Positions 1 to 25,881 of a stretch of 32,000 bases of DNA are shown here, one piece after another. Location of the stretch: contig CP001848.1 in assembly GCA_000025185.1 (NCBI GenBank), positions 5,040,001-5,072,000 on the forward strand. Direction: 5' to 3'. The notes under the pieces were generated by a model. It did no database searches. It was not told the DNA's origin and saw nothing but the letters and a program-made list of their open reading frames with translations. The stretch comes from Pirellula staleyi DSM 6068 (GTDB lineage Bacteria; Planctomycetota; Planctomycetia; Pirellulales; Pirellulaceae). The translations under genes were made by a program, and so were the position numbers. Every line of letters begins with the position of its first letter. Position 1 is the first letter of the stretch.

Positions 1-85
1 TACAATGGTGTGATAACTGCGCGACACTCTTAGCGCGGTCGATCGACCTTTTGCTTTGTGCGACGAACCTCTTGCGACTATCACC

Positions 86-637
86 ATGACTTCGCTGCAA
101 GGTCATTTCCTCGCTGCATCGCCCCACCTCGGCGATCCGAATTTCTTTCGTACCGTCGTGCTGATGATCAAGCACGATGCGCAAGGTGCGCTCGGTTTGG
201 TACTCACGCGCCCGATGCAAGAGACCGTAGCCGAGCTATGGCAACGCGTGACCGCTGAAACGATTGCCAACACTGGCTCGGTGCATCTGGGGGGTCCTGT
301 GAATGGTCCTTTGGTGGCCATTCATCGGATGGCATCTGCGGCGGAAGCGGAAGTGTTCGACGGGGTCTATTTTTCGGCCCATAGCGAGCAGATCAGCCGC
401 ATTGTTCATCAAACGAAGAAGCCATACCTGCTCTTCGCGGGCTATTCTGGCTGGTCGGGTGGTCAGCTCGAAGCGGAGCTCGAGCAGGGGGGCTGGCTCA
501 TCGCGCCCGCCACCACCGAGCTTGTGTTCTCCAGCACCGATGACCTTTGGGAACGTGTGGTTCAGTCGATCGGGCTAGCGGTTCTGTCGCCCGCGATTCG
601 TACGAAGCATGTACCGGAAGATCCGACACTGAACTAG
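86..637 (+). CDS. YqgE/AlgH-family protein (UPF0301/DUF179)
   Basis: ORF 56..637. The ATG at 86 gives MTSLQGHFLAASPHLGDPNFFRTVVLMIKHDAQGALGLVLTRP, the typical N-terminal block of this family. The TTG at 56 is a less likely start. Confidence 0.8.
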   Translation: MTSLQGHFLAASPHLGDPNFFRTVVLMIKHDAQGALGLVLTRPMQETVAELWQRVTAETIANTGSVHLGGPVNGPLVAIHRMASAAEAEVFDGVYFSAHSEQISRIVHQTKKPYLLFAGYSGWSGGQLEAELEQGGWLIAPATTELVFSSTDDLWERVVQSIGLAVLSPAIRTKHVPEDPTLN

Positions 638-676
638 CCGCGAGCATTCAGTGCGGCACGCATCAGGCTGATCGTC

Positions 677-3184: not shown

Positions 3185-3894
3185 GACGACTGCTCCGCGG
3201 GCAACTGCGCAAACATATAGCCCTTTCCTCGCACGGTGAGCAACACGCGCGGCTGTGTGGGATCATCGCGCAACTTTTCGCGCAGTCGCGCAATCTGCAT
3301 ATCGATCGTGCGGGTGGGAAGTCCATCGGGGCTGATGCGCCACACGTTCACCAGCAGCTCATCGCGACTGATGGCGCGGCCAGCATGACTTGCCAAATAG
3401 CGAACCAACTCGCATTCGCGCTCCGATAGATCGAGCCGCTCCCCATCGGTGAAGCGGAGTTCGCGACGGGCCAGATCGGCAACTCCGCCAGGGACTTCCA
3501 CCGCTTGCACATCGGTGGGCCGCTGCGGTGATCGACGGAGTACAGCTTCCACACGCGCAAGAAGTTCTTTCACGCTGAATGGTTTTACGACATAGTCGTC
3601 GGCCCCCGCTTCGAGACCTTCCACCCGATCGGCTTCTTCCCCACGCGCGGTGAGTATGATCACCGGCAACAGCGGACGGACACTCCGCACGGTTCGCAAA
3701 ATTTCCATCCCACCACAACCGGGAAGCACGAGATCCAAGAGCAGCAGATCGCACGCTTGTTGCACCGCCATCTCGCGTCCTACTCGCCCACTGCCCGATT
3801 CCAAAACGTGGTAGCCCGAGAACCTAAGTGCATCGACGATCCCTCGGCGAATCGCACTGTCATCTTCGATCGTGAGGATGGTTTTCGTAGACAT
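3181..3894 (-). CDS. OmpR/PhoB-family response regulator (receiver + winged-helix DNA-binding domain)
   Basis: 237 aa. Receiver motifs are ILTIEDD, LLLLDLVLPG and VVKPFS. The C-terminal wHTH reads TRTIDMQIARLREKL...TVRGKGY. A 4-nt ATGA overlap with the kinase gene suggests translational coupling. Confidence 0.92.
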   Translation of the reverse strand: MSTKTILTIEDDSAIRRGIVDALRFSGYHVLESGSGRVGREMAVQQACDLLLLDLVLPGCGGMEILRTVRSVRPLLPVIILTARGEEADRVEGLEAGADDYVVKPFSVKELLARVEAVLRRSPQRPTDVQAVEVPGGVADLARRELRFTDGERLDLSERECELVRYLASHAGRAISRDELLVNVWRISPDGLPTRTIDMQIARLREKLRDDPTQPRVLLTVRGKGYMFAQLPAEQSS

Positions 3895-4171
3895 AAAGAG
3901 GTCCTGGAGAAGTTCGCCTCAAGCACTCGCCCCGAACTTGAGATTTCACTTCCTTCCAAGTGTACCCGACAACCTTGGCCAAGCACCTGCCAGAAAATGG
4001 GGAGAACGGCCCGCTGGGAGTAACTCGTTTGTAACGCCTAGCTTTCCAGCTACCTAAAAACACCCTCAAAAACGTGTGCGGCACTTCGATGTACAACGCG
4101 TTACACTAGGTGGGATCGCAGCGGCAACCTAACGCCCGCTCGCACTAATCCACTTCCGATCGCTAGGGGCT

Positions 4172-5842
4172 ATGCGGATGTTTGGGGTGAAATCGTTTCG
4201 CGCAGCTGAACTGTTTTTGACCTTAGCTATCGTGCTACCGGCGCTGCTGATTTCAGCCGGTTGTCGCGATCGCCTTGCTCCGGGACTGGCCGAGGCACCA
4301 CCCGACCCCAATGCCTACAAAAACCGCAAAATCCTCAAGCCGAAGGTCGAACAGCCGGTCGACGTTTCCGAGGAAACAGCGCTCATCGAAAAGGCCTACG
4401 AATCGTCGCGCACCGCGCGCCGCAACTTCGGATCGCAAGAGTCGGGTGGTGTTCGACTCGCCACCACCGCCATCGAATCGAATCTCGATATCGCCCCCAC
4501 GCTTGTCATTTGGCTCTTTGACGCATCACCAGCGAGCCAAAAGATGGCAATCGAATCAGTCTCGGCGGCCAAGGCTTATTACACCTCTCCCACGACGAAA
4601 TCGAAACTCGATGATCCCGAGCAGCCGCTGCTGACGGTGGTGGGACGATTCGCTGAATCGCTCGAACTGCTAACGCCGGAGCCAACTTCCACCGAAGCGG
4701 ATATCTCGGCGGCGCTCGACAAAGTGCTCGATGCTCCGCCGATCGAAGCAGCCACCACGCAGCCACTCACAGCTGCTCAGTCTGCTGCAGAAAAGTTTCT
4801 TTCCACGCGCACCGAGGGTGGCCGCCAAGTGCTGCTGGTGATGGTCACTGCGCAAGCTGGTAGCGACGATGCCAAAGCAGAAACACTAGCGCCGATGCTG
4901 CAGCGAATGGCGATACCTCTGTACGTGATTGGCACGGCGGCTCCTTGGGGTCAGCCAGGACCTCCGGCCAATGTCGGCGCACGCCCCAATGAACGTGAAG
5001 CTGCAAAACCGACGCGCTACGGTCCGGAGTCACGCTACAGCGAACGGGTGCTCGTCCACATGAGCGCCACGGGGAACTATCGCACCAACGAGAATCTAGC
5101 CATCGAATCGGGCTTCGGACCGTTTGGTCTTGAGTGGGTCGCACGAGCCAGTGGTGGGATGTTCTTTGCCTCACGACCTTTGACCAGCAGCTTTTCGAAC
5201 TTTCGTCACGGCAATACCTACACGGTTTGGCCCACCGGAAGTGAATGGCGTTTTGAGCCTAACGTCGCCAGCAAGTATGCCCCCGATTATGTCTCCGAAG
5301 CCGAATATCAAAAGCGACTCGGTAATGCAGCGGCTCGCGCGCTACATGAAGCTGCGAAACTTGGCGACTTGGTGATCGACGAATACCCGGCTCTCAACTT
5401 CGAACGGAAGTCGGAAGCGCAGATGGCTCGGTCACTCAGCACCGCGCAGCAGTATGCCGCTCGGAACGTTCCACCCGTCGATCGCCGCTACGATCTGCTG
5501 CTCGCAGGAGAATCGGGACGCGATTCGCTTCCGACCGCGCGCTGGCAAGTGCAGTACGATATCGCGATGGGACAAGTCCTCGCGGCGAAGGTGCGACTCG
5601 ATGGCTACAACGCTATGATCGCCGCGCTCAAGCGTGGCAAAACGCCGACCGATCCCGAGAGCAAACTGTGGCTGCTTGAACAATCCACCAACATCGAAAC
5701 GGGAAGCGCGATGCAGAAAATGGCGGAAAAGGCAACGATGTACCTCACCCGCGTGAAGCAAGAGCATCCCGGCACACCTTGGGCCAAACTCGCCGAAGAA
5801 GAGCTTCTATCACCACTGGGCTGGAGTTGGAAAGAAGGCTAG
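4172..5842 (+). CDS. Secreted/lipoprotein-like hypothetical protein with a vWA-like alpha/beta region
   Basis: 556 aa. The N-terminus FLTLAIVLPALLISAGC looks like a signal peptide with a lipobox-like Cys. An alternating beta-strand pattern (TLVIWLFDASPAS, LLTVVGRF, QVLLVMVTAQ, IPLYVIG) resembles a vWA fold with a degenerate MIDAS. No enzymatic motif recognised. Confidence 0.6.
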   Translation: MRMFGVKSFRAAELFLTLAIVLPALLISAGCRDRLAPGLAEAPPDPNAYKNRKILKPKVEQPVDVSEETALIEKAYESSRTARRNFGSQESGGVRLATTAIESNLDIAPTLVIWLFDASPASQKMAIESVSAAKAYYTSPTTKSKLDDPEQPLLTVVGRFAESLELLTPEPTSTEADISAALDKVLDAPPIEAATTQPLTAAQSAAEKFLSTRTEGGRQVLLVMVTAQAGSDDAKAETLAPMLQRMAIPLYVIGTAAPWGQPGPPANVGARPNEREAAKPTRYGPESRYSERVLVHMSATGNYRTNENLAIESGFGPFGLEWVARASGGMFFASRPLTSSFSNFRHGNTYTVWPTGSEWRFEPNVASKYAPDYVSEAEYQKRLGNAAARALHEAAKLGDLVIDEYPALNFERKSEAQMARSLSTAQQYAARNVPPVDRRYDLLLAGESGRDSLPTARWQVQYDIAMGQVLAAKVRLDGYNAMIAALKRGKTPTDPESKLWLLEQSTNIETGSAMQKMAEKATMYLTRVKQEHPGTPWAKLAEEELLSPLGWSWKEG

Positions 5843-11749: not shown

Positions 11750-12220
11750 TTAGTAGCGTCCGCCACCATCGCGACCACCACGGCCACCGCCGCCGCCGTA
11801 ACCACCTCCACCGCCACCACCGTATCCGCCTCCACCGCCACCACCATATCCGCCGCCGCCGCCGTAGCCGCCGCCATCGCGACCACCACCGCCGCCGCCG
11901 TAACCGCCACGACCACCGCCGTAACCGCCACGTCCGCCGCCGCCACCACCGCCGCCGCCAGCTGGACGGGGAGCGCGTTCGCGAGCTTCATTCACCACCA
12001 GGGGACGACCGTTGCAGTTGGTGCCATTGAGGCCATTCACAGCAGGTTCGCAATCGGCGTCGTTCGCCATCTGGACGAAACCAAAGCCGCGCGACCGGCC
12101 GGTTTCCCGGTCCATGATCACTTCGGCAGCTGCCACATCACCAAACGGCTTGAAGAGAGCTTCAAGGTCCGATGAGGAGTACGTCCAGGGGAGGTTCCCC
12201 ACATAGATCCGCTTCGTCAT
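11750..12220 (-). CDS. RRM (RNP-1) RNA-binding protein with a C-terminal Gly/Tyr/Arg-rich tail
   Basis: ATG at 12220. RNP2 is IYVGNL and RNP1 is RGFGFVQM. An RRM of about 85 aa is followed by a 69-aa tail, GGGGGGGGGRGGYGGGRGGYGGGGGGRDGGGYGGGGGYGGGGGGGYGGGGGGGYGGGGGRGGRDGGGRY. Confidence 0.92.
   Translation of the reverse strand: MTKRIYVGNLPWTYSSSDLEALFKPFGDVAAAEVIMDRETGRSRGFGFVQMANDADCEPAVNGLNGTNCNGRPLVVNEARERAPRPAGGGGGGGGGRGGYGGGRGGYGGGGGGRDGGGYGGGGGYGGGGGGGYGGGGGGGYGGGGGRGGRDGGGRY
11753..11959 (-). repeat. Low-complexity (GGN)n/(GGN-TAY) coding repeat encoding the Gly/Tyr/Arg tail
   Basis: About 207 nt are almost entirely ccgcc/ccacc/gtaacc units on the plus strand. This creates the spurious Ala/Val-rich ORF 11710..11991 in another frame. 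Confidence 0.9.
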
Positions 12221-12263
12221 TCGACAAGTCCTTAGAACAGAATCCAAAATCCCAGCAAGCTAG

Positions 12264-12814: not shown

Positions 12815-13729
12815 CTACTTGGGAACCTGGGCTGGTTTACCGTCGTTTTTGCAGCCGAGGTAGTTGTAGGTCCAGTGATCGATGGTCTGCGGCAGGAAAT
12901 GGACCGAACCATCCCCCATCAGGAAATTCGCGCCACTTGGATGACGCGATTTGAAGGCGAGTTCCGTCGTCCAATTGCAGGGACGATTGCATGGGTTCGT
13001 TGCATTGGGATTGCACGAGTCGTAGTTGATCGGCACCAAGGTGCTGGTCAAACCACAGCCGTTGTTCGAACCGGCCCAGCCTCCGCTGTTGTGGTTGCTG
13101 CAGCCACGGCGGACTTCACCGAAGAAGATGGTGCTGGAGAGGCCGTCGGTGATGTCGGCAAATCGCGAGGTCGTTGAGTAGCGTGTGAAGGGACCGGCAA
13201 AGCTGGTGGTCGAACCATAGGGAGCCAGCTGATAGGTGTTCCAGCTGTTCGAGCAATCGCACGAGGGGGACGAAATGTGGCCCGTCGGGCCGATGCTCGC
13301 GGCGTAGTTATGAATCGCGCGGCCGTTGAGCAAGTTGTTGTTGTCGTCGCTCGGACAGATCAGGGTTTTGATGATCGTCGAGGCCAGGAGCACTCCACCG
13401 ACCGATTCGTTTTCCGGCGGCTGTGTGAACGTGAACTGATTGTAGAGAGGCTGCTGTTCGATGAACGGCAGCAAGTGCACGTAGATGCTGCCGCGATTAT
13501 TGGTCGATGCGCCAAACCAAATCGCCCCGGGTGGAAGTGTGCCGAGCACATCGTGGTAGTTGTGCAGGCCAATTCCGATTTGCTTGAGGTTGTTGACGCA
13601 CTGGGTACGTCGGGCAGCTTCGCGCGCTGCTTGTACCGCCGGGAGCAGAAGGGCTACGAGAACTCCAATGATGGCAATGACCACCAGGAGTTCTACGAGC
13701 GTGAAGCCTTTCGACGCGCTCTTGTTCAT
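12815..13729 (-). CDS. DUF1559-family protein with prepilin-type N-terminal cleavage/methylation leader and H-X9-DG tail
   Basis: The N-terminus is MNKSASKGFTLVELLVVIAIIGVLVALLLPAVQAAREAARRTQCVNNLKQIG. The C-terminal motif is HPSGANFLMGDGSVHFL. This family is greatly expanded in Planctomycetota. Confidence 0.9.
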   Translation of the reverse strand: MNKSASKGFTLVELLVVIAIIGVLVALLLPAVQAAREAARRTQCVNNLKQIGIGLHNYHDVLGTLPPGAIWFGASTNNRGSIYVHLLPFIEQQPLYNQFTFTQPPENESVGGVLLASTIIKTLICPSDDNNNLLNGRAIHNYAASIGPTGHISSPSCDCSNSWNTYQLAPYGSTTSFAGPFTRYSTTSRFADITDGLSSTIFFGEVRRGCSNHNSGGWAGSNNGCGLTSTLVPINYDSCNPNATNPCNRPCNWTTELAFKSRHPSGANFLMGDGSVHFLPQTIDHWTYNYLGCKNDGKPAQVPK

Positions 13730-13848
13730 GGAAAACTACTTTCACCAGCAGGAAATCAAAATATAAAGGGGCCCGAGAATCACCCGGGCCAAAAATCACT
13801 TTTTTATGAGCAGTCTGTACATGCGGCGCATCAAAAAACGAGCGCATG

Positions 13849-14307
13849 CTACTTCGAAGTCAGTTCAAGTTTCAGCGATGCCATGCCTGGTTCAATCGTG
13901 TACTCCAGGCCACTCGTGTCGGGCATCGAGTATTTTTTCGGCACCAGAAACTCTTCGCGAAATGCTGCCGGATTGAACGCACCACTCGTCCCATCTTCGT
14001 TCACCTCGACCCCATAGACCTTGGTCTTCACGACGGTGACACGATAGACGCCAGGCGCGACACCGTCGCCAGGCGTTTGTGTTTGAAGCAAAAAGTTACC
14101 AGTCGCATCGGTGTAGCCTTCAGCCGGTCGACCCTCGGCAGGCATGAACATCACAGCAGCCCCTTCGACAGGCTGACCATCGAGTGTCACAACGCCCGCC
14201 ACCTGCACCATGCCACTTGAGCCGCAGCCCGTGGTGATAAGCGCGAAACAAGCAACGAGGCCGATAACCACGGCGCGACGACCTACAGAACTAGCGAGCG
14301 ACCGCAT
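13849..14307 (-). CDS. Small lipoprotein with a carboxypeptidase-regulatory-like (Ig-like beta-sandwich) domain
   Basis: The ATG at 14307 gives MRSLASSVGRRAVVIGLVACFALITTGC (signal plus lipobox-like Cys), followed by VAGVVTLDGQPVEGAAVMFMP...TDATGNFLL...PGVYRVTV. Confidence 0.7.
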   Translation of the reverse strand: MRSLASSVGRRAVVIGLVACFALITTGCGSSGMVQVAGVVTLDGQPVEGAAVMFMPAEGRPAEGYTDATGNFLLQTQTPGDGVAPGVYRVTVVKTKVYGVEVNEDGTSGAFNPAAFREEFLVPKKYSMPDTSGLEYTIEPGMASLKLELTSK

Positions 14308-14590
14308 GAAGAGAGAGGCTTTCGGAGATGAACATACTGCCACCGCCACGGGAGTGGCTCAGCGGCCGGGGAGAGATTGGTGCGTCGCAAATGATCAGGT
14401 GTGCGGTATTAGGCACACCTGCATGCACTAGCATCGACTAAGAATGGCCGATCAACCCGATTTTTTCAAGCAAACCAATGGCTTTTTTGCTTGAAACACG
14501 GAGTTAAACGGACATAGTTCGGCGGGCGAAACCAGCCTAGCGCCAGCAGCGATCGGTGCCTTTACAAGAAACGGACCGAACGGCACCACA

Positions 14591-14704: not shown

Positions 14705-16174
14705 TTACTCGGGAATGTAGTTCAGCGTGTAGTACGCCTTGTTATGCAGCAGAGGCTTACCTTCTGCCGACTTCACACCGGCCATGGTGAATTCATGGAC
14801 GTGCCCTTCGACGATCTTGTCGATGTAGAGCCGAGCGCTGAGGCCATCAGCGGCAACTTCAACCTTGGTGATCGTCGGTTTCGTGTGATCGACTTCAGGG
14901 CTGCCATAAGCGGCCTGATAAATGTAGCAGTAGGTGCTTAGGTCATAGGACTTCGGATCACCAGCGGAGGCGGGATCGACCTTTTCGGTGAAGGTGAATT
15001 CGAAGCCATCTTTCTTGGCATGCATTTCGTGCACTTCAAACGGAACCTTGCCCGACCACATGATCCGATCGAGTGAGTGCGGCTGTGTCCCCCGCGACCC
15101 CCAACCACGATTGGTGCCGCCGACAAACAGCGCCCCTTCTTTGGTGAGGAGCAGCGAGAGCGAGCCTGAACCAATGCCACTGCGGAACGGGAAGCAAGCA
15201 CCTTGGTAGTGTCCCTTCACCTGTTCCATGTAGACCCGCATCACGGTGCTATGGGTCTGATCGCCCACGAAGAGTTGATTTTGGAACGGACCAAACTTGC
15301 CACCGGTGGTATCGCACATGATGCCCGAAGCCGACTGCCCCATTTTGTTGTAGGGAAAGTAAACCGCTGGAGGTTCAAGCTGGGGGATCTTTTTGGCTTC
15401 TACCATCATGCGACTACCCGACTGAGGTTCCGTCGGCTTTTCGCCAATCGCGCCACCAGCTACATCGAACCAGCGGAAGCCGCCGGGATGACCTTGGAAC
15501 GAGCCTGGCTTCAAATGTTTGATGCTGCAGGTTCCGTTCCAGGGACCTTGATTGTCGGTATAGAACATGTCCCCTGCGGCATTCATTCCTACACCGCCCG
15601 GCGAACGAAGTCCGCTGCAGGTCGGAATCACTTTTCCTTCGGGGGTGATGCGGAGGCACCAACCGCGATACTTGCTCTCGCTGCTGAACGACCCGGTGAG
15701 GCAAAGCGTGACCCAGATGTTTCCGTCTTTGTCGAACTTCGACCCGAAGGCGTATTCGTGATAGTCGCCGTTGATGCCCCAGCCATCGCTGACGGTTTCG
15801 AACAGATCGCCACGACCGTCGCCATCTTCATCCTTGATACGCGTGACTTCGCAGCGCTGAGTGGCGTAGAGCCAACCATCTTTTTCGGCGATGCCGAGCA
15901 CTTCATGCAGCCCCGATGCAAACTTGGTGAACTCGGCGTTTTCGGGGTTTTTGACAAACGGTTTGTCGAGCAGAAAGATATCGCCGCGACGGGTCGAGAT
16001 GGCGAGCTTGCCATCGGGCATCATTTCGAGTCCACCTGCTTCCAAATTGACAAATTCCGAGAGTGGAAACGCCACCAACGGATAGTAAGTCTCTTCGGTC
16101 TCTTGAGCGGCGGCAGAGCCGCACAGCAGGAGCAGGGCAGAGAGGAGCGAGCCAGTGAGGAGCCGAATATTCAT
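14705..16174 (-). CDS. Secreted beta-propeller protein resembling PQQ-dependent/soluble sugar (sorbosone/glucose) dehydrogenases, with a C-terminal Ig-like domain
   Basis: The signal peptide is [25 protein letters not shown]. Repeated propeller-blade-like segments include [51 protein letters not shown] and [13 protein letters not shown]. Confidence 0.72.
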
Positions 16175-16247
16175 CGTGATTTCCCTAGGAAATTAGGGGT
16201 TTCGTACCAACATGAAACGCGAGGACGTGCACTGCAAATCGGCGTGA

Positions 16248-18983
16248 CTACCAGTCGTAGGTTTGCGTGATCTGCGCCTTACCATTCTCGATCACTACCG
16301 GAACAAGGAGTTCCGATTTGCCGCCACTTGATCGGATGACCGGCTTACCGGCCGACGTAATCTTGGTGGTCCACTTGTCGTCGATCAGGTAGGTACCACC
16401 TTCCTTCGCTTCGATCTTGCTGGCAACGATCGCGCGGTAATAGAGCCCTTCGACTGCTCCGGGCGCTTCGAGCGTGAATTGCCGCGAGAAGTAGACTGCG
16501 TCGCTATCAGCCACCGGATTCACATAATCGCTGATCACCACATCCCCCATCGCGTAACGGAATGTGGGCTTGCGAAGCTCTCCGAGGCGATAGCCCAGAA
16601 ATCGATAGCCAGCTTGCTCGGCCGATTCACCGGGCCAAGCAGTGTCGGCCGCAGCCAATTTGGCAAACGCGATTCCTTCGGGAAATTTGAGGACGTTGTC
16701 GCCTAGTGGTGGTTCGTAGCCGACGCCACGTCCCGTCCAGTGACGAGCCGCATCGATGAACGAACCTTGCCAAAACATGGCCATTCGAACGTTGTTGGCA
16801 TCAAACGCGAGGTTCAGTTTTTCGGCATAGCCGACACCAATGGCCCGCGAACCTGCACCTTCGATGAAGTTGCGATACATCACCGCTTCATCAAACGCGA
16901 TGAGTTCCATCTTGCCAGTCACCAGACCAATCGGCAGGGTTGCCTGGTCCCCATCGGTCAGGTAGGCGTAGATCGACATGATCTGCTTATCGCTGTTGCC
17001 TTCGAGGATACTCGGAAGCTGCGAAACGCCCCCCGGCCAAGCGGCTGGCATGCGAGTTCCGGGGCGGAACTCTTGGGGGTTCAGCAGATAGTTATGGAAC
17101 CATTCAGGACGTAGGCGTTTGGTCATGGTGGTCATGCTGAGAGCCTGAATGCCGGTCGCCTTTTTATCGGCGAAGGTGTGGCACTTCACGCACGAGTAGC
17201 CTTGCGAGCCAACCAGTCGACGGCCTGCTGCCTTCAGCTTTTTGTCGGCGAGGTCGACGTCGACCTTCGGTGCCGCCTTGGCTTTGGCGAGATCGACTTC
17301 AGCGAGTTGATCGATCAGGGTGCCGACGTTTTCCAAGCCGAAGCGTGGCATGCGGGTGAACATGTAGGGACGATCTTTGGCACCCTCAGCAAAAACGGTC
17401 TTCAGCCATTCAGGCTGCAGCTTGGCACCGACACCTGTGAGCGCTGGAGGGATCCGACCTTCGTCTCCCATTTCAGGCATGTCGGAGAGGAAGTGGGGAT
17501 TGCGAGCTTGTTCGATGCCGCCGATTTCACCACGTGCGTGGCAGGCGTAGCAATTGAAGCGGGCCATTTGGGCCGAAATCAGTTCTTCTTTCGGCTGCTC
17601 GGCAGCGGGCTGTTTTGCGGCTTTGATTGCCTCCACGAGGGAGGTTCGCTGCACTGCTCCGAGAGCGTAGTAAGGAGTTTTGCCACGCGATGATTCGAGG
17701 CAACCACCTTCTCCCTTGAGGGCCGAAAGAGCAGGTGCCGTGGCTTTGGCAGCGACAGCTTCACCACCAATTTTCAGCTGATGGCAGTTGGCGCATCCAA
17801 CCGAAGCAAAGAGCTCGCGACCTTTGGCAGCCAGTTCAGGCTTCACGACGAACTCAGCCGGCGTTTCGCTCCCTGCGGCTGGTTTGGGGGCAGGAATGGC
17901 GACGAAATCCGACAGCGATTGCTGAGGATGACCTTCGCGCTCGACGAGCACTTGCAGCTGTTCTTCACCAGCAGCTTCGAAATATTCGACGACAAACGGA
18001 ATCAGCCCCGCTTTAAGTTTCAGCGGCTTTCGTTTTTGGCTGAACGGATGAACGCCATCGTTATCGATCAGCACCTTGCCATCGATTGAGAGTCGCGAGC
18101 CGTCGTCGGAGCCGATCAGGAAGAGGTAGTTTCCGTCGGCAGGAATTTGGAGCAAACCATCGAAACGCAAGGCAAAGTTTTCCTTGGCCTTCACGACCGA
18201 GACATCGATTACCGAGGCATCGCCGGTTGATTTGGGAGTCAACTTCGAGAAGTCGGGGAGTTTGTCCCAGGTTCCTTCGTAGTAGGCAAATTGCAGCCCC
18301 GATGCGAGTGGAAGATCGTTCAGCAGATACGAGGCGACATCGCGGGCATCGGTGCCATTAAGAAGATGGGGCATGCGGCCACCGGGGCGAACTTTTAGTG
18401 GATCGCTGAGGAATTCGGTGAGACCGGCGAGGGTGTACTTGCGCGAAGGAGTGCCGAGTGGAATCGACGTGGGGAGCGCGACTGCTCCTTCTTTGCGTGA
18501 ATCGTGGCAGGCAAGACAGCCGACTTCGTGATAGATCTTTTCGCCCCGCATGGCAGCCTGGCGAAGCGGGGAGGTCTCTTGCGTGGTACCGGTGGTGGCG
18601 AGGAAGTGCACAATCGCTTCCGCAGCAGCGGCCCGTTCGGCGTCGGGAAGAGTGTGCAGAACGCCGGGCATGGTGGTTCCTGGCTTCACCGTTTGCGGAT
18701 CGGCGAGGAACTTCATGAGATACTGCATTTTCACGCGATTGCCGACGGAATCGAGAATCGGCGCGGGTTTCTTTTGGACAGCGGAAGCAAGCGCGGCATC
18801 AGCTGCGTGACAGCTGGTGCAATTGAGTTCGCCCAGCAGCAGCTGACCACCACGGAGAGCTTGATCTCCCGACGCATGAAAACGTTCGTAGCCGATCACG
18901 CGCGGCGGCGCCTCTTGGGCCACAACCAGCGGGGCCCAAGCGAGCATCATGCTCAAAAACAAGAACGAGAAACCACGTCGCAT
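16248..18983 (-). CDS. Secreted multi-heme c-type cytochrome (5 CxxCH) with an inserted PA14 domain
   Basis: The signal peptide is MRRGFSFLFLSMMLAWAPLVVAQE. Heme motifs are CTSCH (aa 55), CLACH (156), CANCH (397), CYACH (478) and CVKCH (598). Met-ligand-type motifs are GTTMPG, GGRMPH, FTRMPRF and GTRMPAA. The PA14-like segment GLQFAYYEGTWDKLPDF...ADGNYLFLIGSDDGSRLSIDGKVLIDNDG spans about aa 228-345 (about 17949-18302). Confidence 0.87.
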   Translation of the reverse strand: MRRGFSFLFLSMMLAWAPLVVAQEAPPRVIGYERFHASGDQALRGGQLLLGELNCTSCHAADAALASAVQKKPAPILDSVGNRVKMQYLMKFLADPQTVKPGTTMPGVLHTLPDAERAAAAEAIVHFLATTGTTQETSPLRQAAMRGEKIYHEVGCLACHDSRKEGAVALPTSIPLGTPSRKYTLAGLTEFLSDPLKVRPGGRMPHLLNGTDARDVASYLLNDLPLASGLQFAYYEGTWDKLPDFSKLTPKSTGDASVIDVSVVKAKENFALRFDGLLQIPADGNYLFLIGSDDGSRLSIDGKVLIDNDGVHPFSQKRKPLKLKAGLIPFVVEYFEAAGEEQLQVLVEREGHPQQSLSDFVAIPAPKPAAGSETPAEFVVKPELAAKGRELFASVGCANCHQLKIGGEAVAAKATAPALSALKGEGGCLESSRGKTPYYALGAVQRTSLVEAIKAAKQPAAEQPKEELISAQMARFNCYACHARGEIGGIEQARNPHFLSDMPEMGDEGRIPPALTGVGAKLQPEWLKTVFAEGAKDRPYMFTRMPRFGLENVGTLIDQLAEVDLAKAKAAPKVDVDLADKKLKAAGRRLVGSQGYSCVKCHTFADKKATGIQALSMTTMTKRLRPEWFHNYLLNPQEFRPGTRMPAAWPGGVSQLPSILEGNSDKQIMSIYAYLTDGDQATLPIGLVTGKMELIAFDEAVMYRNFIEGAGSRAIGVGYAEKLNLAFDANNVRMAMFWQGSFIDAARHWTGRGVGYEPPLGDNVLKFPEGIAFAKLAAADTAWPGESAEQAGYRFLGYRLGELRKPTFRYAMGDVVISDYVNPVADSDAVYFSRQFTLEAPGAVEGLYYRAIVASKIEAKEGGTYLIDDKWTTKITSAGKPVIRSSGGKSELLVPVVIENGKAQITQTYDW

Positions 18984-19280: not shown

Positions 19281-20180
19281 CTAGCTGCTGGCGCTGCGAT
19301 AGCCGCGCAGTGAAAGCTGGAAAACCCATCGCGACACGGCGAGGCAGGCGAGGGTCGCAAAAATGGCAAAAATCGCCAGTGGCCAAACCTGTTCACCCGT
19401 GGGACTCACCGGCCGCGCAATGATCCGGGCTGGCACGTTCACCACCACCAGCACCGGCAAAATGTAGGTGAAACCCATCCGCAGGGGAGTGCCGAGTCGA
19501 CCTTCGTAGATCTCCATCGGATAGCGGGCAAAGTTGGTGATGTAGAACCAAAAATCGTAGAGCGATCGGTTCTGCCCGAGCCAAATGCTGGTCGCCGCCA
19601 GCGCGATCATCAGGCTGTACATCACCGCCACGCCGCACAGCACGTATAGCAAATAGAGGACGTACGAAGCTGGCGCAATCACTAGCGGACTGGTTTCGCG
19701 CGAGGTGAGTTGCCACAGGCTATAGCTGAGCAGCACCGTGCCGGCCGCAACGTTCGACAGACTCGACCAGTCGATCTTCCGCATCGAGATGAGAAACTGA
19801 GTATCAATCGGCTTGAGGAGTGCGAAATCGAGTCCACCTGTTCGAATCAGCTCACTCACCTCTTCGCAGTTGGGCATGAAGAACGTTTCGACAAGTCCGT
19901 TCACCAGCATGGTGGTAGCGAGAAAAGCGAAGAACTCGTACTTGCCCCAGCCAGTGTTGGGGCCGATCGAGGTGGTGTAGTTGAAAACGATCAGATAGAG
20001 ACCAACGTTCATGCCGGTCCAAGTGATGCTCGAAAAACACTCGATCAAAAAATTCATGCGAAACGTCATGTCGCGCACGAGGCTGTTGCTGGCGAATGTC
20101 AGCAGCACACTCAGGTAGCGCGGATGGACCGCATCGCTAGCGATGGCGGAGCGTTTCGAGTTATCGATCGGAGGATTCAT
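19281..20180 (-). CDS. ABC-2-family transporter permease (COG3694-like)
   Basis: The ATG at 20180 gives MNPPIDNSKR...; the diagnostic block is ELIRTGGLDFALLKPIDTQFL, and about 6 TM segments are visible. The track ORF start at 20357 would overlap the upstream gene by 140 nt. Confidence 0.8.
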   Translation of the reverse strand: MNPPIDNSKRSAIASDAVHPRYLSVLLTFASNSLVRDMTFRMNFLIECFSSITWTGMNVGLYLIVFNYTTSIGPNTGWGKYEFFAFLATTMLVNGLVETFFMPNCEEVSELIRTGGLDFALLKPIDTQFLISMRKIDWSSLSNVAAGTVLLSYSLWQLTSRETSPLVIAPASYVLYLLYVLCGVAVMYSLMIALAATSIWLGQNRSLYDFWFYITNFARYPMEIYEGRLGTPLRMGFTYILPVLVVVNVPARIIARPVSPTGEQVWPLAIFAIFATLACLAVSRWVFQLSLRGYRSASS

Positions 20181-20217
20181 AAGGCGAGCAGGCCTGCCAA
20201 AGTACGAGAGTCTCGCG

Positions 20218-21033
20218 CTAACCACCGAAAGCCGAGTAGCGACGAACCCCACGCGAATAGAGAAGTCGCGAGAGGAACATGAACAGCAGCATCCACAAGA
20301 ACTCGAGCAACAACCCTTCCCACAGGTCGCGGCCTTGCACCTTGCCAAGCAGCACATTCGCCGGGAAATAGGCGAGGTACTGGAGCGGCATTAAGTCGAC
20401 AATCGTTCGCCACGGCTCACCGAGCATGTCGAGCGGGAACATATGTCCTGACAAGAAGAAATTGAAGAGCATGTAGATAAACAAAAGCGAACTGACCTCG
20501 AGCCACCAAAAACCGACGAGTCCCATGCAGGCTTCGAGATAGAATCCCAGCAAAAAACAGAGGACCAAAGCGAGAATGCCAGCGGCCAGAGTGCCCGGGT
20601 CGGGCCAGCCGTCGAAATAGCTGCGGCAAAGGAAAAAGACGAGGGCGAACGGGCCTGTGGCGATGGCAAAGTAGGCCAATTTATGAGCCACGCGGCCCAA
20701 GAGCAAAAAGGCGAGCAGATCGACCGGCTGGAGTAAGAACTTTTTGACTTCGCCACTCCGAATCTGGGCGGCGATGCCACTGGAGAGTCCCGGCATGCTC
20801 GAAAAAGCGCGCGAGACCATCGTCAGCAGGTAATAGGCGACGATTTGCTCGTAGCTGTAACCCGCGAGATCGCCACCTCCTCGGGCCAAGAACACAGCAT
20901 TCCACAGGAAGATTTGCGTGACGATCGGCAGAAAGCGCATCAGCGTGCCGAGCGCAAAATCGCCACGATAGACGAGCCGCTCCTGCAATGCGATTCGCAG
21001 GATGATCCACCACGTTATTGCCTGAGCAAACAA
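20218..21033 (-). CDS. ABC-2-family transporter permease (COG4587-like)
   Basis: 271 aa with a TTG start. The N-terminus has LQERLVYRGDF, the diagnostic block is QIRSGEVKKFLLQPVD, and multiple TM segments are visible. Confidence 0.8.
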   Translation of the reverse strand: MFAQAITWWIILRIALQERLVYRGDFALGTLMRFLPIVTQIFLWNAVFLARGGGDLAGYSYEQIVAYYLLTMVSRAFSSMPGLSSGIAAQIRSGEVKKFLLQPVDLLAFLLLGRVAHKLAYFAIATGPFALVFFLCRSYFDGWPDPGTLAAGILALVLCFLLGFYLEACMGLVGFWWLEVSSLLFIYMLFNFFLSGHMFPLDMLGEPWRTIVDLMPLQYLAYFPANVLLGKVQGRDLWEGLLLEFLWMLLFMFLSRLLYSRGVRRYSAFGG

Positions 21034-21168: not shown

Positions 21169-22212
21169 TTACGGCAAATCGACCGGTTGGGCATCGCAGC
21201 GGCTGTTCATCAGATACCACGCGCGCTGCGAGACGATCGATGCGACCCCACGGATCGAACCATCGCACATCGCCAGATTGCAGATGTTGCCGCCATGGAG
21301 GCTCCGGGCTTGTGCCTGCATGTTGTACCAGTCGGCATTCGAGCACCCCATCCGCTTCTTGGGGCCGAGATCAGCGGTCCAAAACTGGCTGCAGTTTTGA
21401 ATATCGTCGGCGTGGGGCAGATTATCGTTGGGATAGAGGCAGTCCCCAATTGCGTGCGCACAAACGATGCTGGCGCCGGGCAAACCGATGGCCCAAGTGC
21501 CACGGATATCCCGGGCTTCGACCCCGCTTCGAACTTCCGTGAACATCACGGTGTTGCTTGTTCCATCGGTGATTTCCGCCATCCGAGCCCCATAGTTGGC
21601 GCTCATCACCGCACCGGCTGGTCCCCAACCTGGATCGCTTTCAAAGCCACCTGCGGGAACTTGTCCGTTGGGGGTGAGATACCACCAAGTAGGTCCCGCG
21701 TTGGCGGCATAGCTGCCACGTGCCCAGCCACCTCCAGCGCCACTGAACTGCACATTATTGCCACCCGAGTCGCTGGGGCATTGATAGGTCTTGAGCACCA
21801 CCGATTTCAGGTTGCGCCAATTCTGCGAGCCGGTCTTGCGATAGCCATCGATATCGTTGCTGTCATACAGCGGCTTTTGCTCGACGTAGGGGAGCATCAA
21901 GACTGCCCAGTTGGGGCCAAACTGCTCGTTCACATCTTGTCCGGTGCCACGCTTTCCTTGAGGGGCAGTGAAGTAGCTCATCTGCACAGCTTCGGGAAAG
22001 GCTCCGAGTGTGTCGTGATGATTGTGAGCCCCCAGAGCGATTTGCTTCAGGTTGTTCGAGCACTGCGTGCGTCGGGCCGATTCGCGAGCCGCCTGAACTG
22101 CTGGCAACAGCAGAGCGACCAGGACACCGATAATTGCAATCACCACCAGCAACTCGACGAGTGTAAAACCTCGCCGCCATGCGTTGCTGTTTCGCCACGC
22201 TAAAGCATTCAT
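21169..22212 (-). CDS. DUF1559-family protein with prepilin-type N-terminal leader and H-X(9-10)-DG tail
   Basis: The N-terminus is MNALAWRNSNAWRRGFTLVELLVVIAIIGVLVALLLPAVQAARESARRTQCSNNLKQIA. The C-terminal motif is HGGNICNLAMCDGSIRG. A GGAGG ribosome-binding site lies 7-8 nt upstream of the ATG. Confidence 0.9.
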   Translation of the reverse strand: MNALAWRNSNAWRRGFTLVELLVVIAIIGVLVALLLPAVQAARESARRTQCSNNLKQIALGAHNHHDTLGAFPEAVQMSYFTAPQGKRGTGQDVNEQFGPNWAVLMLPYVEQKPLYDSNDIDGYRKTGSQNWRNLKSVVLKTYQCPSDSGGNNVQFSGAGGGWARGSYAANAGPTWWYLTPNGQVPAGGFESDPGWGPAGAVMSANYGARMAEITDGTSNTVMFTEVRSGVEARDIRGTWAIGLPGASIVCAHAIGDCLYPNDNLPHADDIQNCSQFWTADLGPKKRMGCSNADWYNMQAQARSLHGGNICNLAMCDGSIRGVASIVSQRAWYLMNSRCDAQPVDLP

Positions 22213-23893: not shown

Positions 23894-25018
23894 TTAGTGT
23901 TTTCCTTTGCCGAGTAGCTCTTTGATTTCGACAGCCCGGTGCTCTTTCACCGAGAGATAGCAGGCGTCGACCAGGGCCATGGTCTTCAGGTTATCCAGCC
24001 CGCTGATGGTCGGCTGTTCGCCATTCTCGAGAGCGATCAACAGTTCGGCCATCGTTCCGCCAAAAGCGTCGGGGAACCAAACTTCTTTCCAGCGTGGAGA
24101 AAGCCAGTAGTTCCCTTGCTCGGTGGTTGTAAAGTCGAGTGTGCTGGGCGTTGGATGAGGATAGTCGGGCCAGCCGATCGTCCCCTTGGCAAGTCCCTTA
24201 AGCCCCTCGACGCGCCACTTGATACCAATGTCGGCCTGAGCCCCTTCGAGTGCCGGACCGGTCCAAACGTCGTCGCACGCCATGGCGCGGAGTCCGTTTT
24301 CGTACTCCAAGATGTAGAGGCAGATGCCGTCGGAATGCTCGAACTTCTTCGCCGTGCGAGGATCGGGTCTGACACTGGCAAATACGCGCACTGGATCGCC
24401 AAACAGATAGCGAAACGTATCGAGATGGTGAATCGACATGATGCGAAGCGTCACCCAACCTTGGCGCTGTTGCCACGGCATCCAGTGGGGAATGGCCCGC
24501 ATATCAATCGTCGCGAGCACCGCCTCGCCCAGCAGGTCGCGCTCGAGCAAACATTTGAGCGCGCGGATTGAGTGATCGAACCGCATGTTTTGATTCACGG
24601 CCAGTGTGACACCTGCTCGTTTGCAGAGTGCAACAATCTCGCGAGCCTGCTGCAAATTCGCGCCGAGTGGCTTTTGCGCAAGGATGCCGCGCACATGCTT
24701 TTTGTAAGCCAGAACGTTGCGAATCACTTCGATTTGCGTGTCGGGTGGCACTGCGATATCGACCACCTCGACCTTGCCACTGGCGAGCATTTCTTGATAG
24801 GTATCAAACGCCTCGAGTCCATGTTGCTCGGCAATGCGCTGCGCATGAGCAGGAGTGCGCGACGCAATCGCTACCGGATTGAAACCTGCTTTGCGATAGG
24901 CCACGAGATGACAATCGGCCATCACAAAACCACTACCAATGCAGCCGATCGGCGCCGATCGATCGCGAGGCATCGGGGGTAAATAATCGAGTTCGAGATT
25001 CAGCGACTTCTTGGCCAT
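23894..25018 (-). CDS. Gfo/Idh/MocA-family NAD(P)-dependent oxidoreductase
   Basis: ATG at 25018 (MAKKSLNL...). The Rossmann motif is IGCIGSGFV, and AQKPLG occupies the EKP-motif position. The alpha/beta C-terminal domain is typical of the family. Confidence 0.85.
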
Positions 25019-25059
25019 CGCAATCACTTTCAGAGAGGCAATCAGCGGCGCGTGCTCAG

Positions 25060-25881
25060 TTACTCGGCAAGCCCCGTGCGAGACATCAGCAAGCGTGTCG
25101 CTGCATACGCTTCGGTGACCCACTCGACAATTTTGTCGGGCTCGGGGGAGTACTCGAGTTCAATCGACATCGCGCCGTCGATCTGCAACGCGGCAAGCTC
25201 TTGCAAGTAAGGCTCAAAAGGAACGACACCACGTCCGGGTGGCAGATCGCCATGCTTTTTCCCATCGCAATCGCTGATGTGCACATGGGCCGCAAGCGAG
25301 CGAAGTTTTCGCAACTCTTCGGGCTGCACGCCTGCCAACAGCAAGTGCGAAATATCGATATTCGCCTTGATTTGCGGGTGATTGACGTCGCGCAGCAATT
25401 GCACCATGCGATCGACACTGTTGACCAGCGACAAGGGAAACGGTTCAAGTTCGATGGCGATCTCGACACCGAGCCCACCTGCATAATCCCCCAAACGTTT
25501 GCAGTTATCGACTGCGGTTTGCCACTGCTCGGCAGGTGCGATCACTTCCTGGTTCCAGACATACTCGCCAAGTACCAGCAGCACATTCTTGGCGTGATAC
25601 TCGTAGGCTAGATCGAGATACTCTTGCACTCGATCGACATGAAACCGCTGCACGCTCGGATTGAAATCCACAAGTCCGAGCGCCACACAGCAGAGCGAAA
25701 CAATCGGCAGATCGATTTCCGCACAGACCTTGGGAATAAGCCGGCGCTCGCGGATGTCGATATCGAGCGGATCGACAAACAGATCGACGTGATCGAAGCC
25801 AATTTCTTTAGTCTTACGAAGTCCGTATTCGGTAGGCTGACCAGCCTGAACCCAAGCCGAATTGATGAGTCCTAGTTTCAT
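25060..25881 (-). CDS. Xylose-isomerase-like TIM-barrel protein (sugar phosphate isomerase/epimerase family)
   Basis: 273 aa. It begins [10 protein letters not shown] and carries the blocks [16 protein letters not shown] and HVHISDCDG. Confidence 0.85.

Follow-up and report, generated by a model that had tools for sequence, protein, structure and literature searches.

A conserved gene pair of Pirellula staleyi, encoding a five-heme PA14 cytochrome and a dehydrogenase-like propeller, as a candidate periplasmic oxidoreductase

What would a cytochrome c with a PA14 domain set among its hemes be doing beside a propeller of the dehydrogenase type? This question is raised by two neighbouring genes of Pirellula staleyi DSM 6068, both encoded, as are all their features described below, on the minus strand of a window of 32,000 nucleotides (contig CP001848.1, positions 5,040,001 to 5,072,000), to which all coordinates refer unless another locus is named. 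Gene A (Psta_3883; WP_012912797.1; UniProt D2R153; 16248-18983) is an open reading frame (ORF) of 911 amino acids (aa), 100% identical to the 'PA14 domain protein' of this strain. Gene B (Psta_3882; WP_012912796.1; UniProt D2R152; 14705-16174), an ORF of 489 aa labelled 'DUF7133 domain-containing protein' in UniProt, lies downstream of A after a spacer of 73 nt (16175-16247). Both ORFs and their spacing coincide exactly with those of an initial annotation made from the sequence alone, which had proposed that the pair docks on a glycan, oxidises it at the propeller, and relays the electrons through the hemes. No paper came up in a literature search on DUF6797, DUF7133, Psta_3882/3883, or the accession numbers. 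We describe here the pair as an annotated, uncharacterised, and widely conserved two-gene module and argue, with a confidence slightly above even, that its products represent two subunits of one periplasmic oxidoreductase acting on a sugar or glycan, where B would be the catalytic subunit and A would provide docking, lectin-type binding, and electron transfer.

Pairing of the two genes across phyla

A search with A against 5.8 billion proteins resulted in 1431 relatives at E <= 1e-5, the 120 best of which are mostly of ~900-950 aa and nearly all combine PA14 with cytochrome c. When one genome per species was scanned, relatives of A were found in 402 stretches, and 80 of these loci were retained for analysis. 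Nearly all of them are titled Planctomycetota (Pirellulaceae, Gemmataceae, and Planctomycetaceae, with Singulisphaera and Tundrisphaera), covering four planctomycetal orders. The pairing was counted over the 67 loci with at least 1.7 kb of sequence downstream of A, and 62 of them (93%) have an orthologue of B downstream of A on its strand, with a median estimated spacer of ~100 nt; the co-conservation on which the initial annotation had staked its proposal is strong. B is better conserved than A (median identity 66% versus 47%). Clustering of the ORFs over the 80 loci revealed no conserved neighbour besides A and B, and the DUF1501, DUF1553-type, RRM, and DUF1559 genes that recur in them represent generic planctomycete content. 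Most of the larger gaps between A and B that were examined (loci L001, L011, L015, L050, L053, L061, and L062 in our numbering) hold small inserted genes of mobile or toxin type, including a PIN-domain toxin, an IS200-like transposase, and a Uma2-type nuclease, among others, and insertions appear to recur in this spacer.

Beyond the five-heme form, three further architectures were found with a profile of the C-terminal domain of A: (i) a plastocyanin/azurin-type copper domain followed by PA14 and the C-terminal domain, of ~530-610 aa; (ii) a single cytochrome c followed by PA14 and DUF6797, of ~520-540 aa; and (iii) a 3-keto-disaccharide-hydrolase (DUF1080) domain placed before an A-like five-heme protein, of ~1200 aa. 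The copper domains retain a complete type-1 site, made up of the His in 'HHNL' and of 'YPYVC-x-x-PGH-x-x-x-M' (His...Cys-x4-His-x3-Met). The copper variant is common: a search with it led to 1255 relatives, of which those named by taxon belong to Verrucomicrobiales, Akkermansiaceae, Opitutae, Phycisphaerae, and Rhodothermales. In Verrucomicrobiota, Phycisphaerae, and Rhodothermales, a cassette of one-electron carrier, PA14, and DUF6797 recurs, the carrier being either a single heme or an azurin-like copper domain. Since the one-electron carriers interchange before the same PA14 and DUF6797 cassette, the comparison of sequences suggests that electron transfer would be the constant role of A-type proteins. 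Azurins are frequent in Verrucomicrobia and Bacteroidetes and almost absent from Planctomycetes (PMC8779525), a distribution that fits a lineage-specific choice of carrier.

The partner gene accompanies these variants as well. In five of the six variant loci with room for it (L081, L082, L084/L085, L087, and L088), the next gene encodes a DUF7133 protein of 484-511 aa, 50-59% identical to B of P. staleyi, at a distance that goes from an overlap of 10 nt to a spacer of 28 nt, with overlapping start and stop codons in some cases. Two observations weigh against an invariable association: B is absent within 10 kb in five of the 67 loci, where the five-heme gene is intact and which, except for a small subgroup of Schlesneria, are spread over the phylogeny, and the Opitutae variant locus L089/L090 has no B either.

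Some of the variant loci show additional features. At L083 (1260-6263), a long variant of ~1200 aa is preceded by a separate 3-keto-disaccharide-hydrolase gene of 303 aa, and the contig ends before any propeller position; one such long protein bears the NCBI name 'family 16 glycoside hydrolase'. At L084 (GCA_964196025.1), the region 1-5553 upstream of the copper-variant pair encodes, on the opposite strand to the pair, a nirK-like multicopper/cytochrome c gene, SCO1/SenC, an FGE-sulfatase-type gene, and an Rrf2 regulator, whereas a cytochrome b/ferredoxin fusion, encoded on the strand of the pair, is located still further upstream; the link to nitrogen oxides that this single locus might evoke is unproven.

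The two halves of the system also exist as one protein. In a Verrucomicrobiales metagenome-assembled genome (GCA_030747955.1), the third gene of locus L088 (8434-11811; > 1126 aa), located directly after a copper variant and its propeller, encodes a Laminin_G_3 domain (aa 178-258), a cytochrome c (aa 340-416), DUF6797 (aa 502-606; 100 bits), and then a propeller. When this propeller was aligned to the B family with hhalign, a probability of 99.7% was obtained (E = 3e-26) over 384 columns, the Ig-like domain of B included. The fused gene arranges lectin-like domain, heme, DUF6797, and propeller in the order obtained by reading first A and then B, so that the two genes of P. staleyi look as if split at the A/B junction, which backs the idea of the initial annotation that the pair is a split version of the fused dehydrogenase/heme proteins of the Planctomycetota-Verrucomicrobiota-Chlamydiota (PVC) bacteria. 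Paralogous split and fused systems lie in tandem at this locus.

The propeller and its five-heme partner

B consists of a signal peptide, a six-bladed DUF7133 propeller, and an Ig-like C-terminal domain. Its signal peptide comprises 23 aa, followed by QE (16106-16174), and, like that of A, was called by reading the sequence; it appears to be of Sec type by eye and coincides with a region of low predicted local distance difference test (pLDDT) score at aa 1-20. The propeller (aa ~30-375; 15050-16087) was delimited by an AlphaFold2 (AF2) model, Foldseek, conservation, and the alignment to the fused propeller, and the Ig-like beta-sandwich (aa 376-489; 14708-15049), which is also present in the fused homologue, by secondary structure. 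Pfam places B in DUF7133 (PF23500) with 34.3 bits against a cut-off of 27 over aa 82-317, and the protein has no CxxCH motif. The AF2 model, with a pLDDT of 87.8 and a predicted template modelling score (pTM) of 0.89, comprises the propeller and the C-terminal beta-sandwich, and its top 17 Foldseek matches in the Protein Data Bank (PDB) are all PQQ sugar dehydrogenases (E from 2e-13 to 7e-9). The best ones are 3a9g and 2ism (E = 2e-13), accompanied by the soluble glucose dehydrogenase (sGDH) 1cq1, by 7cdy and 3das, and by the fungal AA12 enzyme 6jt5, and those of lower rank include YliI/Asd (2g8s), another AA12 (6h7t), and HHIP. The modelled fold of B is that of the six-bladed propellers of the soluble glucose/aldose dehydrogenase type.

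Sequence models tell less in favour of a dehydrogenase. B stays below the threshold of the GSDH family (PF07995; 18.5 versus 25 bits) and reaches only 38.5 bits against the trusted cut-off of 122.2 for TIGR02604, of which it is a distant relative only. No match to the PQQ-dehydrogenase model TIGR03606 was found at E <= 1, and a profile of 46 B sequences retrieved no solved structure from the PDB sequences. A PDB sequence search with B alone yielded at most single NHL-like blades of the designed 'Pizza' proteins. Of the dehydrogenase-like propeller claimed by the initial annotation, the fold stands, whereas the sequence thresholds (GSDH, TIGR02604, and TIGR03606) do not support it.

Conservation delineates a candidate active site. 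B has 144 positions that do not vary among six split orthologues from three phyla, and 51 of them are kept in the fused paralogue, among which are the D115/D119/D123 loop (DxDGDxxxD), H139-E140, R190, D207, and W212-N213. A profile alignment of B with YliI from Escherichia coli reaches only 3% probability in hhalign, which counts against the reading of B as a dehydrogenase and makes the alignment a guide to motif correspondence only. There, 'GLRSPGG...DNQGPWN' of B lies over 'GIRNPQG...NEHGPRG', so that R190 coincides with the Arg of IRNPQG, the quinoprotein motif, and 'HEYAFG' lies beside 'NHFGG', with the candidate catalytic His, H139, 2-3 residues off register, a further point against that reading. 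This correspondence is suggestive of a PQQ site in B and no proof of it. Two other candidates were dropped: a Cys-derived cofactor or disulfide, as Cys173 and Cys327 are not conserved across phyla, and a His-x-His metal site in the Ig-like domain, as the HxH motif is not conserved across phyla either.

The partner protein A is made up of a signal peptide, two cytochrome c domains, PA14, three further cytochrome c domains, and a DUF6797-like C-terminal domain. The signal peptide, MRRGFSFLFLSMMLAWAPLVVA / QE (18918-18983), would also be of Sec type, with low pLDDT at aa 1-22, and the attachment of c-type hemes takes place on the periplasmic side. In the AF2 model, built from a 69-sequence alignment (pLDDT 85.1, pTM 0.71), the cytochrome domains are helical, aa ~230-349 form a beta-sandwich, and aa 700-910 form a beta-rich domain, corresponding to the non-heme C-terminal domain (aa ~686-911) that had been noticed in the initial annotation.

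The five CxxCH motifs of A, at aa 55, 156, 397, 478, and 598, are CTSCH (aa 55-59; 18807-18821), CLACH (aa 156-160; 18504-18518), CANCH (aa 397-401; 17781-17795), CYACH (aa 478-482; 17538-17552), and CVKCH (aa 598-602; 17178-17192). The first, second, fourth, and fifth are followed by Met-Pro motifs with the candidate distal ligands M105 (TTMP), M204 (GRMP), M545 (TRMP), and M645 (TRMP), respectively. This count of five hemes, four of them with Met-Pro motifs, had already been proposed, and it is confirmed by the homologues: all nine motifs are invariant in 69/69 aligned sequences (49-83% identity), and exactly five CxxCH are present in 117/117 full-length top matches, so that the pattern is not due to chance. 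Membership in the class I cytochromes c is supported by Pfam (Cytochrom_C, PF00034, 74.3 bits; Cytochrome_CBB3, PF13442, 57 bits), and the hemes occupy five separate class-I-type domains along the chain, with no compact multiheme core. An identity as SoxX was rejected: the score of A for this equivalog (TIGR04485; 71.7 bits) is above the cut-off, yet it results from adding up three short, separate cytochrome stretches on a model of 78 positions, and the SoxA model gives an E of 0.18.

The third heme site has no Met-Pro motif after it. The only cysteine of A besides those of the hemes, C428 (17700-17702), is found 31 residues past this site and is invariant in the 69 sequences. All of the 202 five-heme sequences collected have a Cys between the third and the fourth CxxCH, 22-40 aa past the third in 201 of them (mode 31) and 62 aa past it in the other one. 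No Met or His is conserved as an alternative ligand in the heme-3 domain of these sequences, 42 of which contain neither residue in the whole segment between the third and the fourth CxxCH. Given the absence of a conserved Met or His and the constant presence of the Cys, the simplest reading is that heme 3 is probably a His/Cys-ligated, low-potential heme, with C428 as the candidate axial ligand. His/Cys-ligated c-type hemes are known in SoxA, TsdA, PsbV2, and NaxLS.

Between hemes 2 and 3, where a PA14-like segment had been suspected, A contains a PA14 domain (aa 228-352; 17928-18302), identified by Pfam (PF07691, 61.8 bits versus a cut-off of 24, aa 265-352), by a PDB sequence match (6qdi is the best one of A, with E = 1.7e-11), and by structure. 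Calcium-dependent carbohydrate binding by PA14 domains runs through an Asp-Asp loop. The Foldseek PDB matches of the A model are all PA14 domains, Flo5 and Epa1 included, with a probability of 1.00 for 6qdi/6qe7 (RsgI), for 6m8m (MpIBP), the sugar-binding PA14 of a Marinomonas adhesin, and for 3abz, the insert of KmBglI. In A, S292-D293-D294-G295 is invariant in 69/69 homologues, and glycan binding would be the most likely role of this domain, although the second calcium/sugar loop is not invariant, which speaks against it. The fold and the Asp-Asp motif are common to A and to the PA14 sensors and lectins (RsgI of C. clariflavum/thermocellum, Marinomonas MpIBP, and yeast Flo5/Epa1). However, none of these is set between heme domains, and their ligand-binding loops are not conserved with A. 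The initial annotation overstated how unusual a PA14 domain is in such a cytochrome: the architecture is found in at least 402 species-level genomes, and fusions of PA14 to PVC cytochromes have been known since 2017 (PMC5615132).

The best-conserved part of A is its beta-rich, non-heme C-terminal domain (aa 686-911; 16251-16928), which holds the densest block of invariant residues: Y703 R704 N705 F706, R713, N724, D728, W738, F742, D744 A745, H748 W749, R752 G753, and P759 L760 G761. Its core (aa 726-816; 16536-16808) resembles DUF6797 (PF20601; E = 0.0074), below the cut-off in P. staleyi (15.4-17.5 versus 24.9 bits). DUF6797 is nevertheless the sole Pfam family matched by 13/13 C-terminal domains of the A family (best E 6e-9), and the cut-off is passed by the variants P0346, P0241, and P0345. 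The link of A to DUF6797 rests on these Pfam matches, since the hhalign comparison of the A C-terminal profile with the DUF6797 region of the fused L088 protein was not significant (0.85%). A profile of this domain retrieved 2447 representative proteins from a library clustered at 50% identity, and 514 of these fell below 1e-30. Its conservation, its co-occurrence with B, and the fusion lead us to propose it as the putative docking domain for the propeller.

Proposed function, its alternatives, and the surrounding genes

The adjacency of B to A in most loci, the retention of B by the variants, and the existence of a fused homologue are the reasons to read both proteins as subunits of one enzyme. 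Both of them would be exported to the periplasm, where A would dock on B through its DUF6797-like domain, and B would act as the catalytic subunit through the conserved His-Glu, Arg, and Asp pocket of its propeller, with PQQ or another cofactor. The PA14 domain would offer a lectin-type binding surface, most likely for carbohydrate, and the five class I heme domains, four with His/Met and one probably with His/Cys ligation, would pass single electrons between the active site of B and the respiratory chain. In the most likely direction, a sugar or the end of a glycan would be oxidised at B, and the electrons would leave via the hemes to a terminal oxidase. The link to carbohydrates is drawn from the resemblance of PA14 to sugar-binding lectins, from the Laminin_G_3 or 3-keto-disaccharide-hydrolase domains that paralogues carry in its place or besides it, and from the action of a TIGR02604 relative on lactose. 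As a whole, the initial interpretation is partly supported. It had overlooked the DUF6797-like domain, recognised in A for the first time here, the variants with a cupredoxin or a single heme, and the lone Cys that is conserved past heme 3; these points, with the swap of carriers and the fused homologue, are new.

Of the alternatives, the one that survives best concerns the PA14 domain, which could be a structural spacer or a protein-contact domain within the A-B complex, with a small, non-polymeric substrate; this is possible, but we find it rather doubtful. PA14 domains with roles other than lectins, namely the shaping of the active site in KmBglI and the anthrax protective antigen, are both among the fold matches, and the A family varies in the second loop, by which the calcium/sugar site of yeast adhesins is completed. 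Moreover, the high identity of B across three phyla suggests one universal, simple substrate. Against this stand the invariance of the Asp-Asp motif, the nature of the closest relatives of solved structure, which are lectins or sensors of carbohydrates, and the paralogous architectures that put other lectin-like folds in the place of PA14.

A different chemistry is also conceivable, in which B would be a glycoside-cleaving propeller, possibly acting via transient oxidation, with PA14 holding the glycan and the hemes of A in an auxiliary, regenerating, or regulatory role. This idea, which we consider unlikely, starts from Lac161_ORF7, a protein with propeller, HEAT repeats, and cytochrome c that hydrolysed lactose with a Km of 1.8 mM (PMC5342196); as the sole assayed relative of TIGR02604, and one showing no dehydrogenase action, it also counts against an oxidoreductase. 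The TIGR02604 family has been listed, in addition, as a putative propeller-type glycoside hydrolase family (PMC7397252), and both the many invariant acidic residues of B and the 3-keto-disaccharide-hydrolase domain of the long variants would agree with cleavage. Even so, B is just a distant relative of TIGR02604, its best fold matches are dehydrogenases and not glycosidases, and a heme or copper domain that is kept and swapped across three phyla would be needless for a plain hydrolase.

The direction of the electrons might also be the opposite, with A feeding electrons from the respiratory chain to B for the reduction of a periplasmic substrate, be it a sugar or other, which we deem just as improbable as cleavage. 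Donating electrons to periplasmic reductases is a common task of class I cytochromes c and azurins, and the arrangement would resemble the cytochrome c or azurin feeding the propellers of nitrite or nitrous-oxide reductases. A His/Cys heme of low potential would be in keeping with a reductive or gated function, and the copper variant of L084 adjoins the nirK-like, SCO1, FGE-sulfatase-type, and Rrf2 genes mentioned above. However, L084 alone shows this neighbourhood, encoded on the strand opposite to the pair, no neighbour is conserved that would suggest nitrogen or another respiratory substrate, and the redox-active fold relatives of B are all dehydrogenases. Furthermore, no metal-site motif of B is conserved across phyla, with HxH, Cys173, and Cys327 all variable. 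Finally, that A and B are mere neighbours with independent functions, as the loci without B (the five and the Opitutae variant) and the genes inserted between them in others could suggest, is very hard to reconcile with an adjacency kept in 93% of the loci from four planctomycetal orders and in the divergent variants of Verrucomicrobiota and Rhodothermales, with the overlapping start and stop codons of some variants, and with the fused homologue.

Extending the reading of A and B as an oxidoreductase, we put forward as a speculation, in which we place limited confidence, that they belong to an uncharacterised but widespread class of periplasmic enzymes of the Planctomycetota-Verrucomicrobiota and Rhodothermales, dedicated to oxidative glycan processing and built from a DUF7133 propeller, a DUF6797 cap, lineage-specific carriers, and a lectin module, where the cofactor of the propeller would possibly be other than PQQ. 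If true, such a class would tie the breakdown of polysaccharides directly to respiration and be the bacterial counterpart of the cellobiose and pyranose dehydrogenases of fungi. Planctomycetes and Verrucomicrobia play a major part in polysaccharide degradation in water and soil, and they encode dozens of largely uncharacterised proteins in which a propeller or a lectin is fused to a cytochrome. The A-B pair is unusually tractable among them, with two genes, a self-contained neighbourhood, a catalytic subunit conserved across three phyla, and natural carrier swaps and a natural fusion that mark which parts belong together. Its substrate and cofactor would give the first functional anchor for DUF7133 and DUF6797, and the pair would test whether the electrons of sugar oxidation enter the respiratory chain directly in these bacteria. 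A sugar-oxidising enzyme with a built-in lectin and a heme wire would also be of interest to biosensor and biofuel-cell research.

Regarding the surroundings of the pair in P. staleyi, A is preceded on its own strand by two genes for ABC-2 family permeases (19281-21033), an adjacency not kept in other genomes; the listed start of the first yields an odd, Cys-rich N-terminus, probably from an over-extended ORF call. Downstream of B, the genes encode a small protein of CarboxypepD_reg type, a pseudopilin-like DUF1559 protein, and an RRM protein rich in glycine. The window has two DUF1559 proteins with N-terminal prepilin-type methylation motifs (12815-14349 and 21169-22212, both minus strand), one of them preceded by the small CarboxypepD_reg-like protein, which is typical high-copy planctomycete content. 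The RRM-domain protein has a long Gly/Arg/Tyr-rich tail (11750-12247, minus strand), and a similar gene is found a few kb downstream of A-B in nine of the 80 related loci, which probably reflects the local synteny of Pirellulaceae rather than a functional link. About 5 kb upstream, a NAD-binding oxidoreductase of the GFO/IDH/MocA family (23894-25123, minus strand) shows no conserved linkage to A-B; this family is very abundant in planctomycetes, and an action on sugars has been proposed for it elsewhere. A scan for promoters and terminators gave nothing above shuffled expectation, with one -35/-10-like site ~150 nt upstream of A.

Relation to known systems

Among the families described so far, the PVC-type heme-binding CxxCH proteins come nearest, which combine a TIGR02604 propeller, HEAT repeats, and a TIGR02603 cytochrome c, and which include Lac161_ORF7 (AGW45552). 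Like A-B, they join a periplasmic DUF7133/TIGR02604-type propeller to a c-type cytochrome, have a link to carbohydrates, and are mainly confined to Planctomycetota and Verrucomicrobiota. Contrary to them, A and B are separate polypeptides with no HEAT repeats, and bring five hemes, PA14, and a DUF6797-like domain. A second group consists of the PSCyt cytochromes of freshwater Verrucomicrobia, described as fused to domains of the carbohydrate-binding module (CBM) type, PA14 included (He et al. 2017, PMC5615132). As in A, a PVC cytochrome c is combined there with a CBM-type domain in proteins predicted to be periplasmic and proposed to act on carbohydrates. However, these cytochromes belong to the PSCyt1-3 family with PSD domains, and their conserved partners are other unknown genes and not a DUF7133 propeller.

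As for B, the soluble PQQ sugar dehydrogenases, represented by sGDH from A. calcoaceticus (1cq1), YliI/Asd from E. coli (2g8s), and the enzymes from P. aerophilum (3a9g) and T. thermophilus (2ism), have the same six-bladed fold and are its best structural matches (E = 2e-13, template modelling score ~0.7 on the target). They are periplasmic and share the R-x-P-x-G motif, with R190 on the Arg of YliI in the weak alignment described above. B differs from them in its low identity (12-20%), its score below the Pfam GSDH threshold, its extra Ig-like domain, and its obligate gene partner.

The interchange of carriers before a constant cassette is the pattern of quinoprotein dehydrogenases with cytochrome or cupredoxin acceptors. 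In the pairs methylamine dehydrogenase-amicyanin, quinohemoprotein alcohol dehydrogenase-azurin, and methanol dehydrogenase-cytochrome cL, a propeller enzyme passes its electrons to a cupredoxin or a class I cytochrome c, and the same interchange between cupredoxin and cytochrome is seen between the lineages of A. Nevertheless, those propellers have 7-8 blades and another cofactor chemistry, and their acceptors are small free proteins with neither lectin nor docking domains.

Two fungal enzymes follow the same overall logic, although the analogy need not reflect common descent. CcPDH, which combines an AA8 cytochrome b, an AA12 PQQ propeller, and a CBM1, and cellobiose dehydrogenase bring together sugar oxidation, heme, and carbohydrate binding as proposed for A-B, and AA12 propellers are among the fold matches of B (6jt5 and 6h7t). 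Whereas these are eukaryotic single polypeptides with a b-type heme and CBM1, the bacterial pair distributes the corresponding parts over two genes, with c-type hemes or copper as carriers and PA14 as its lectin-like module.

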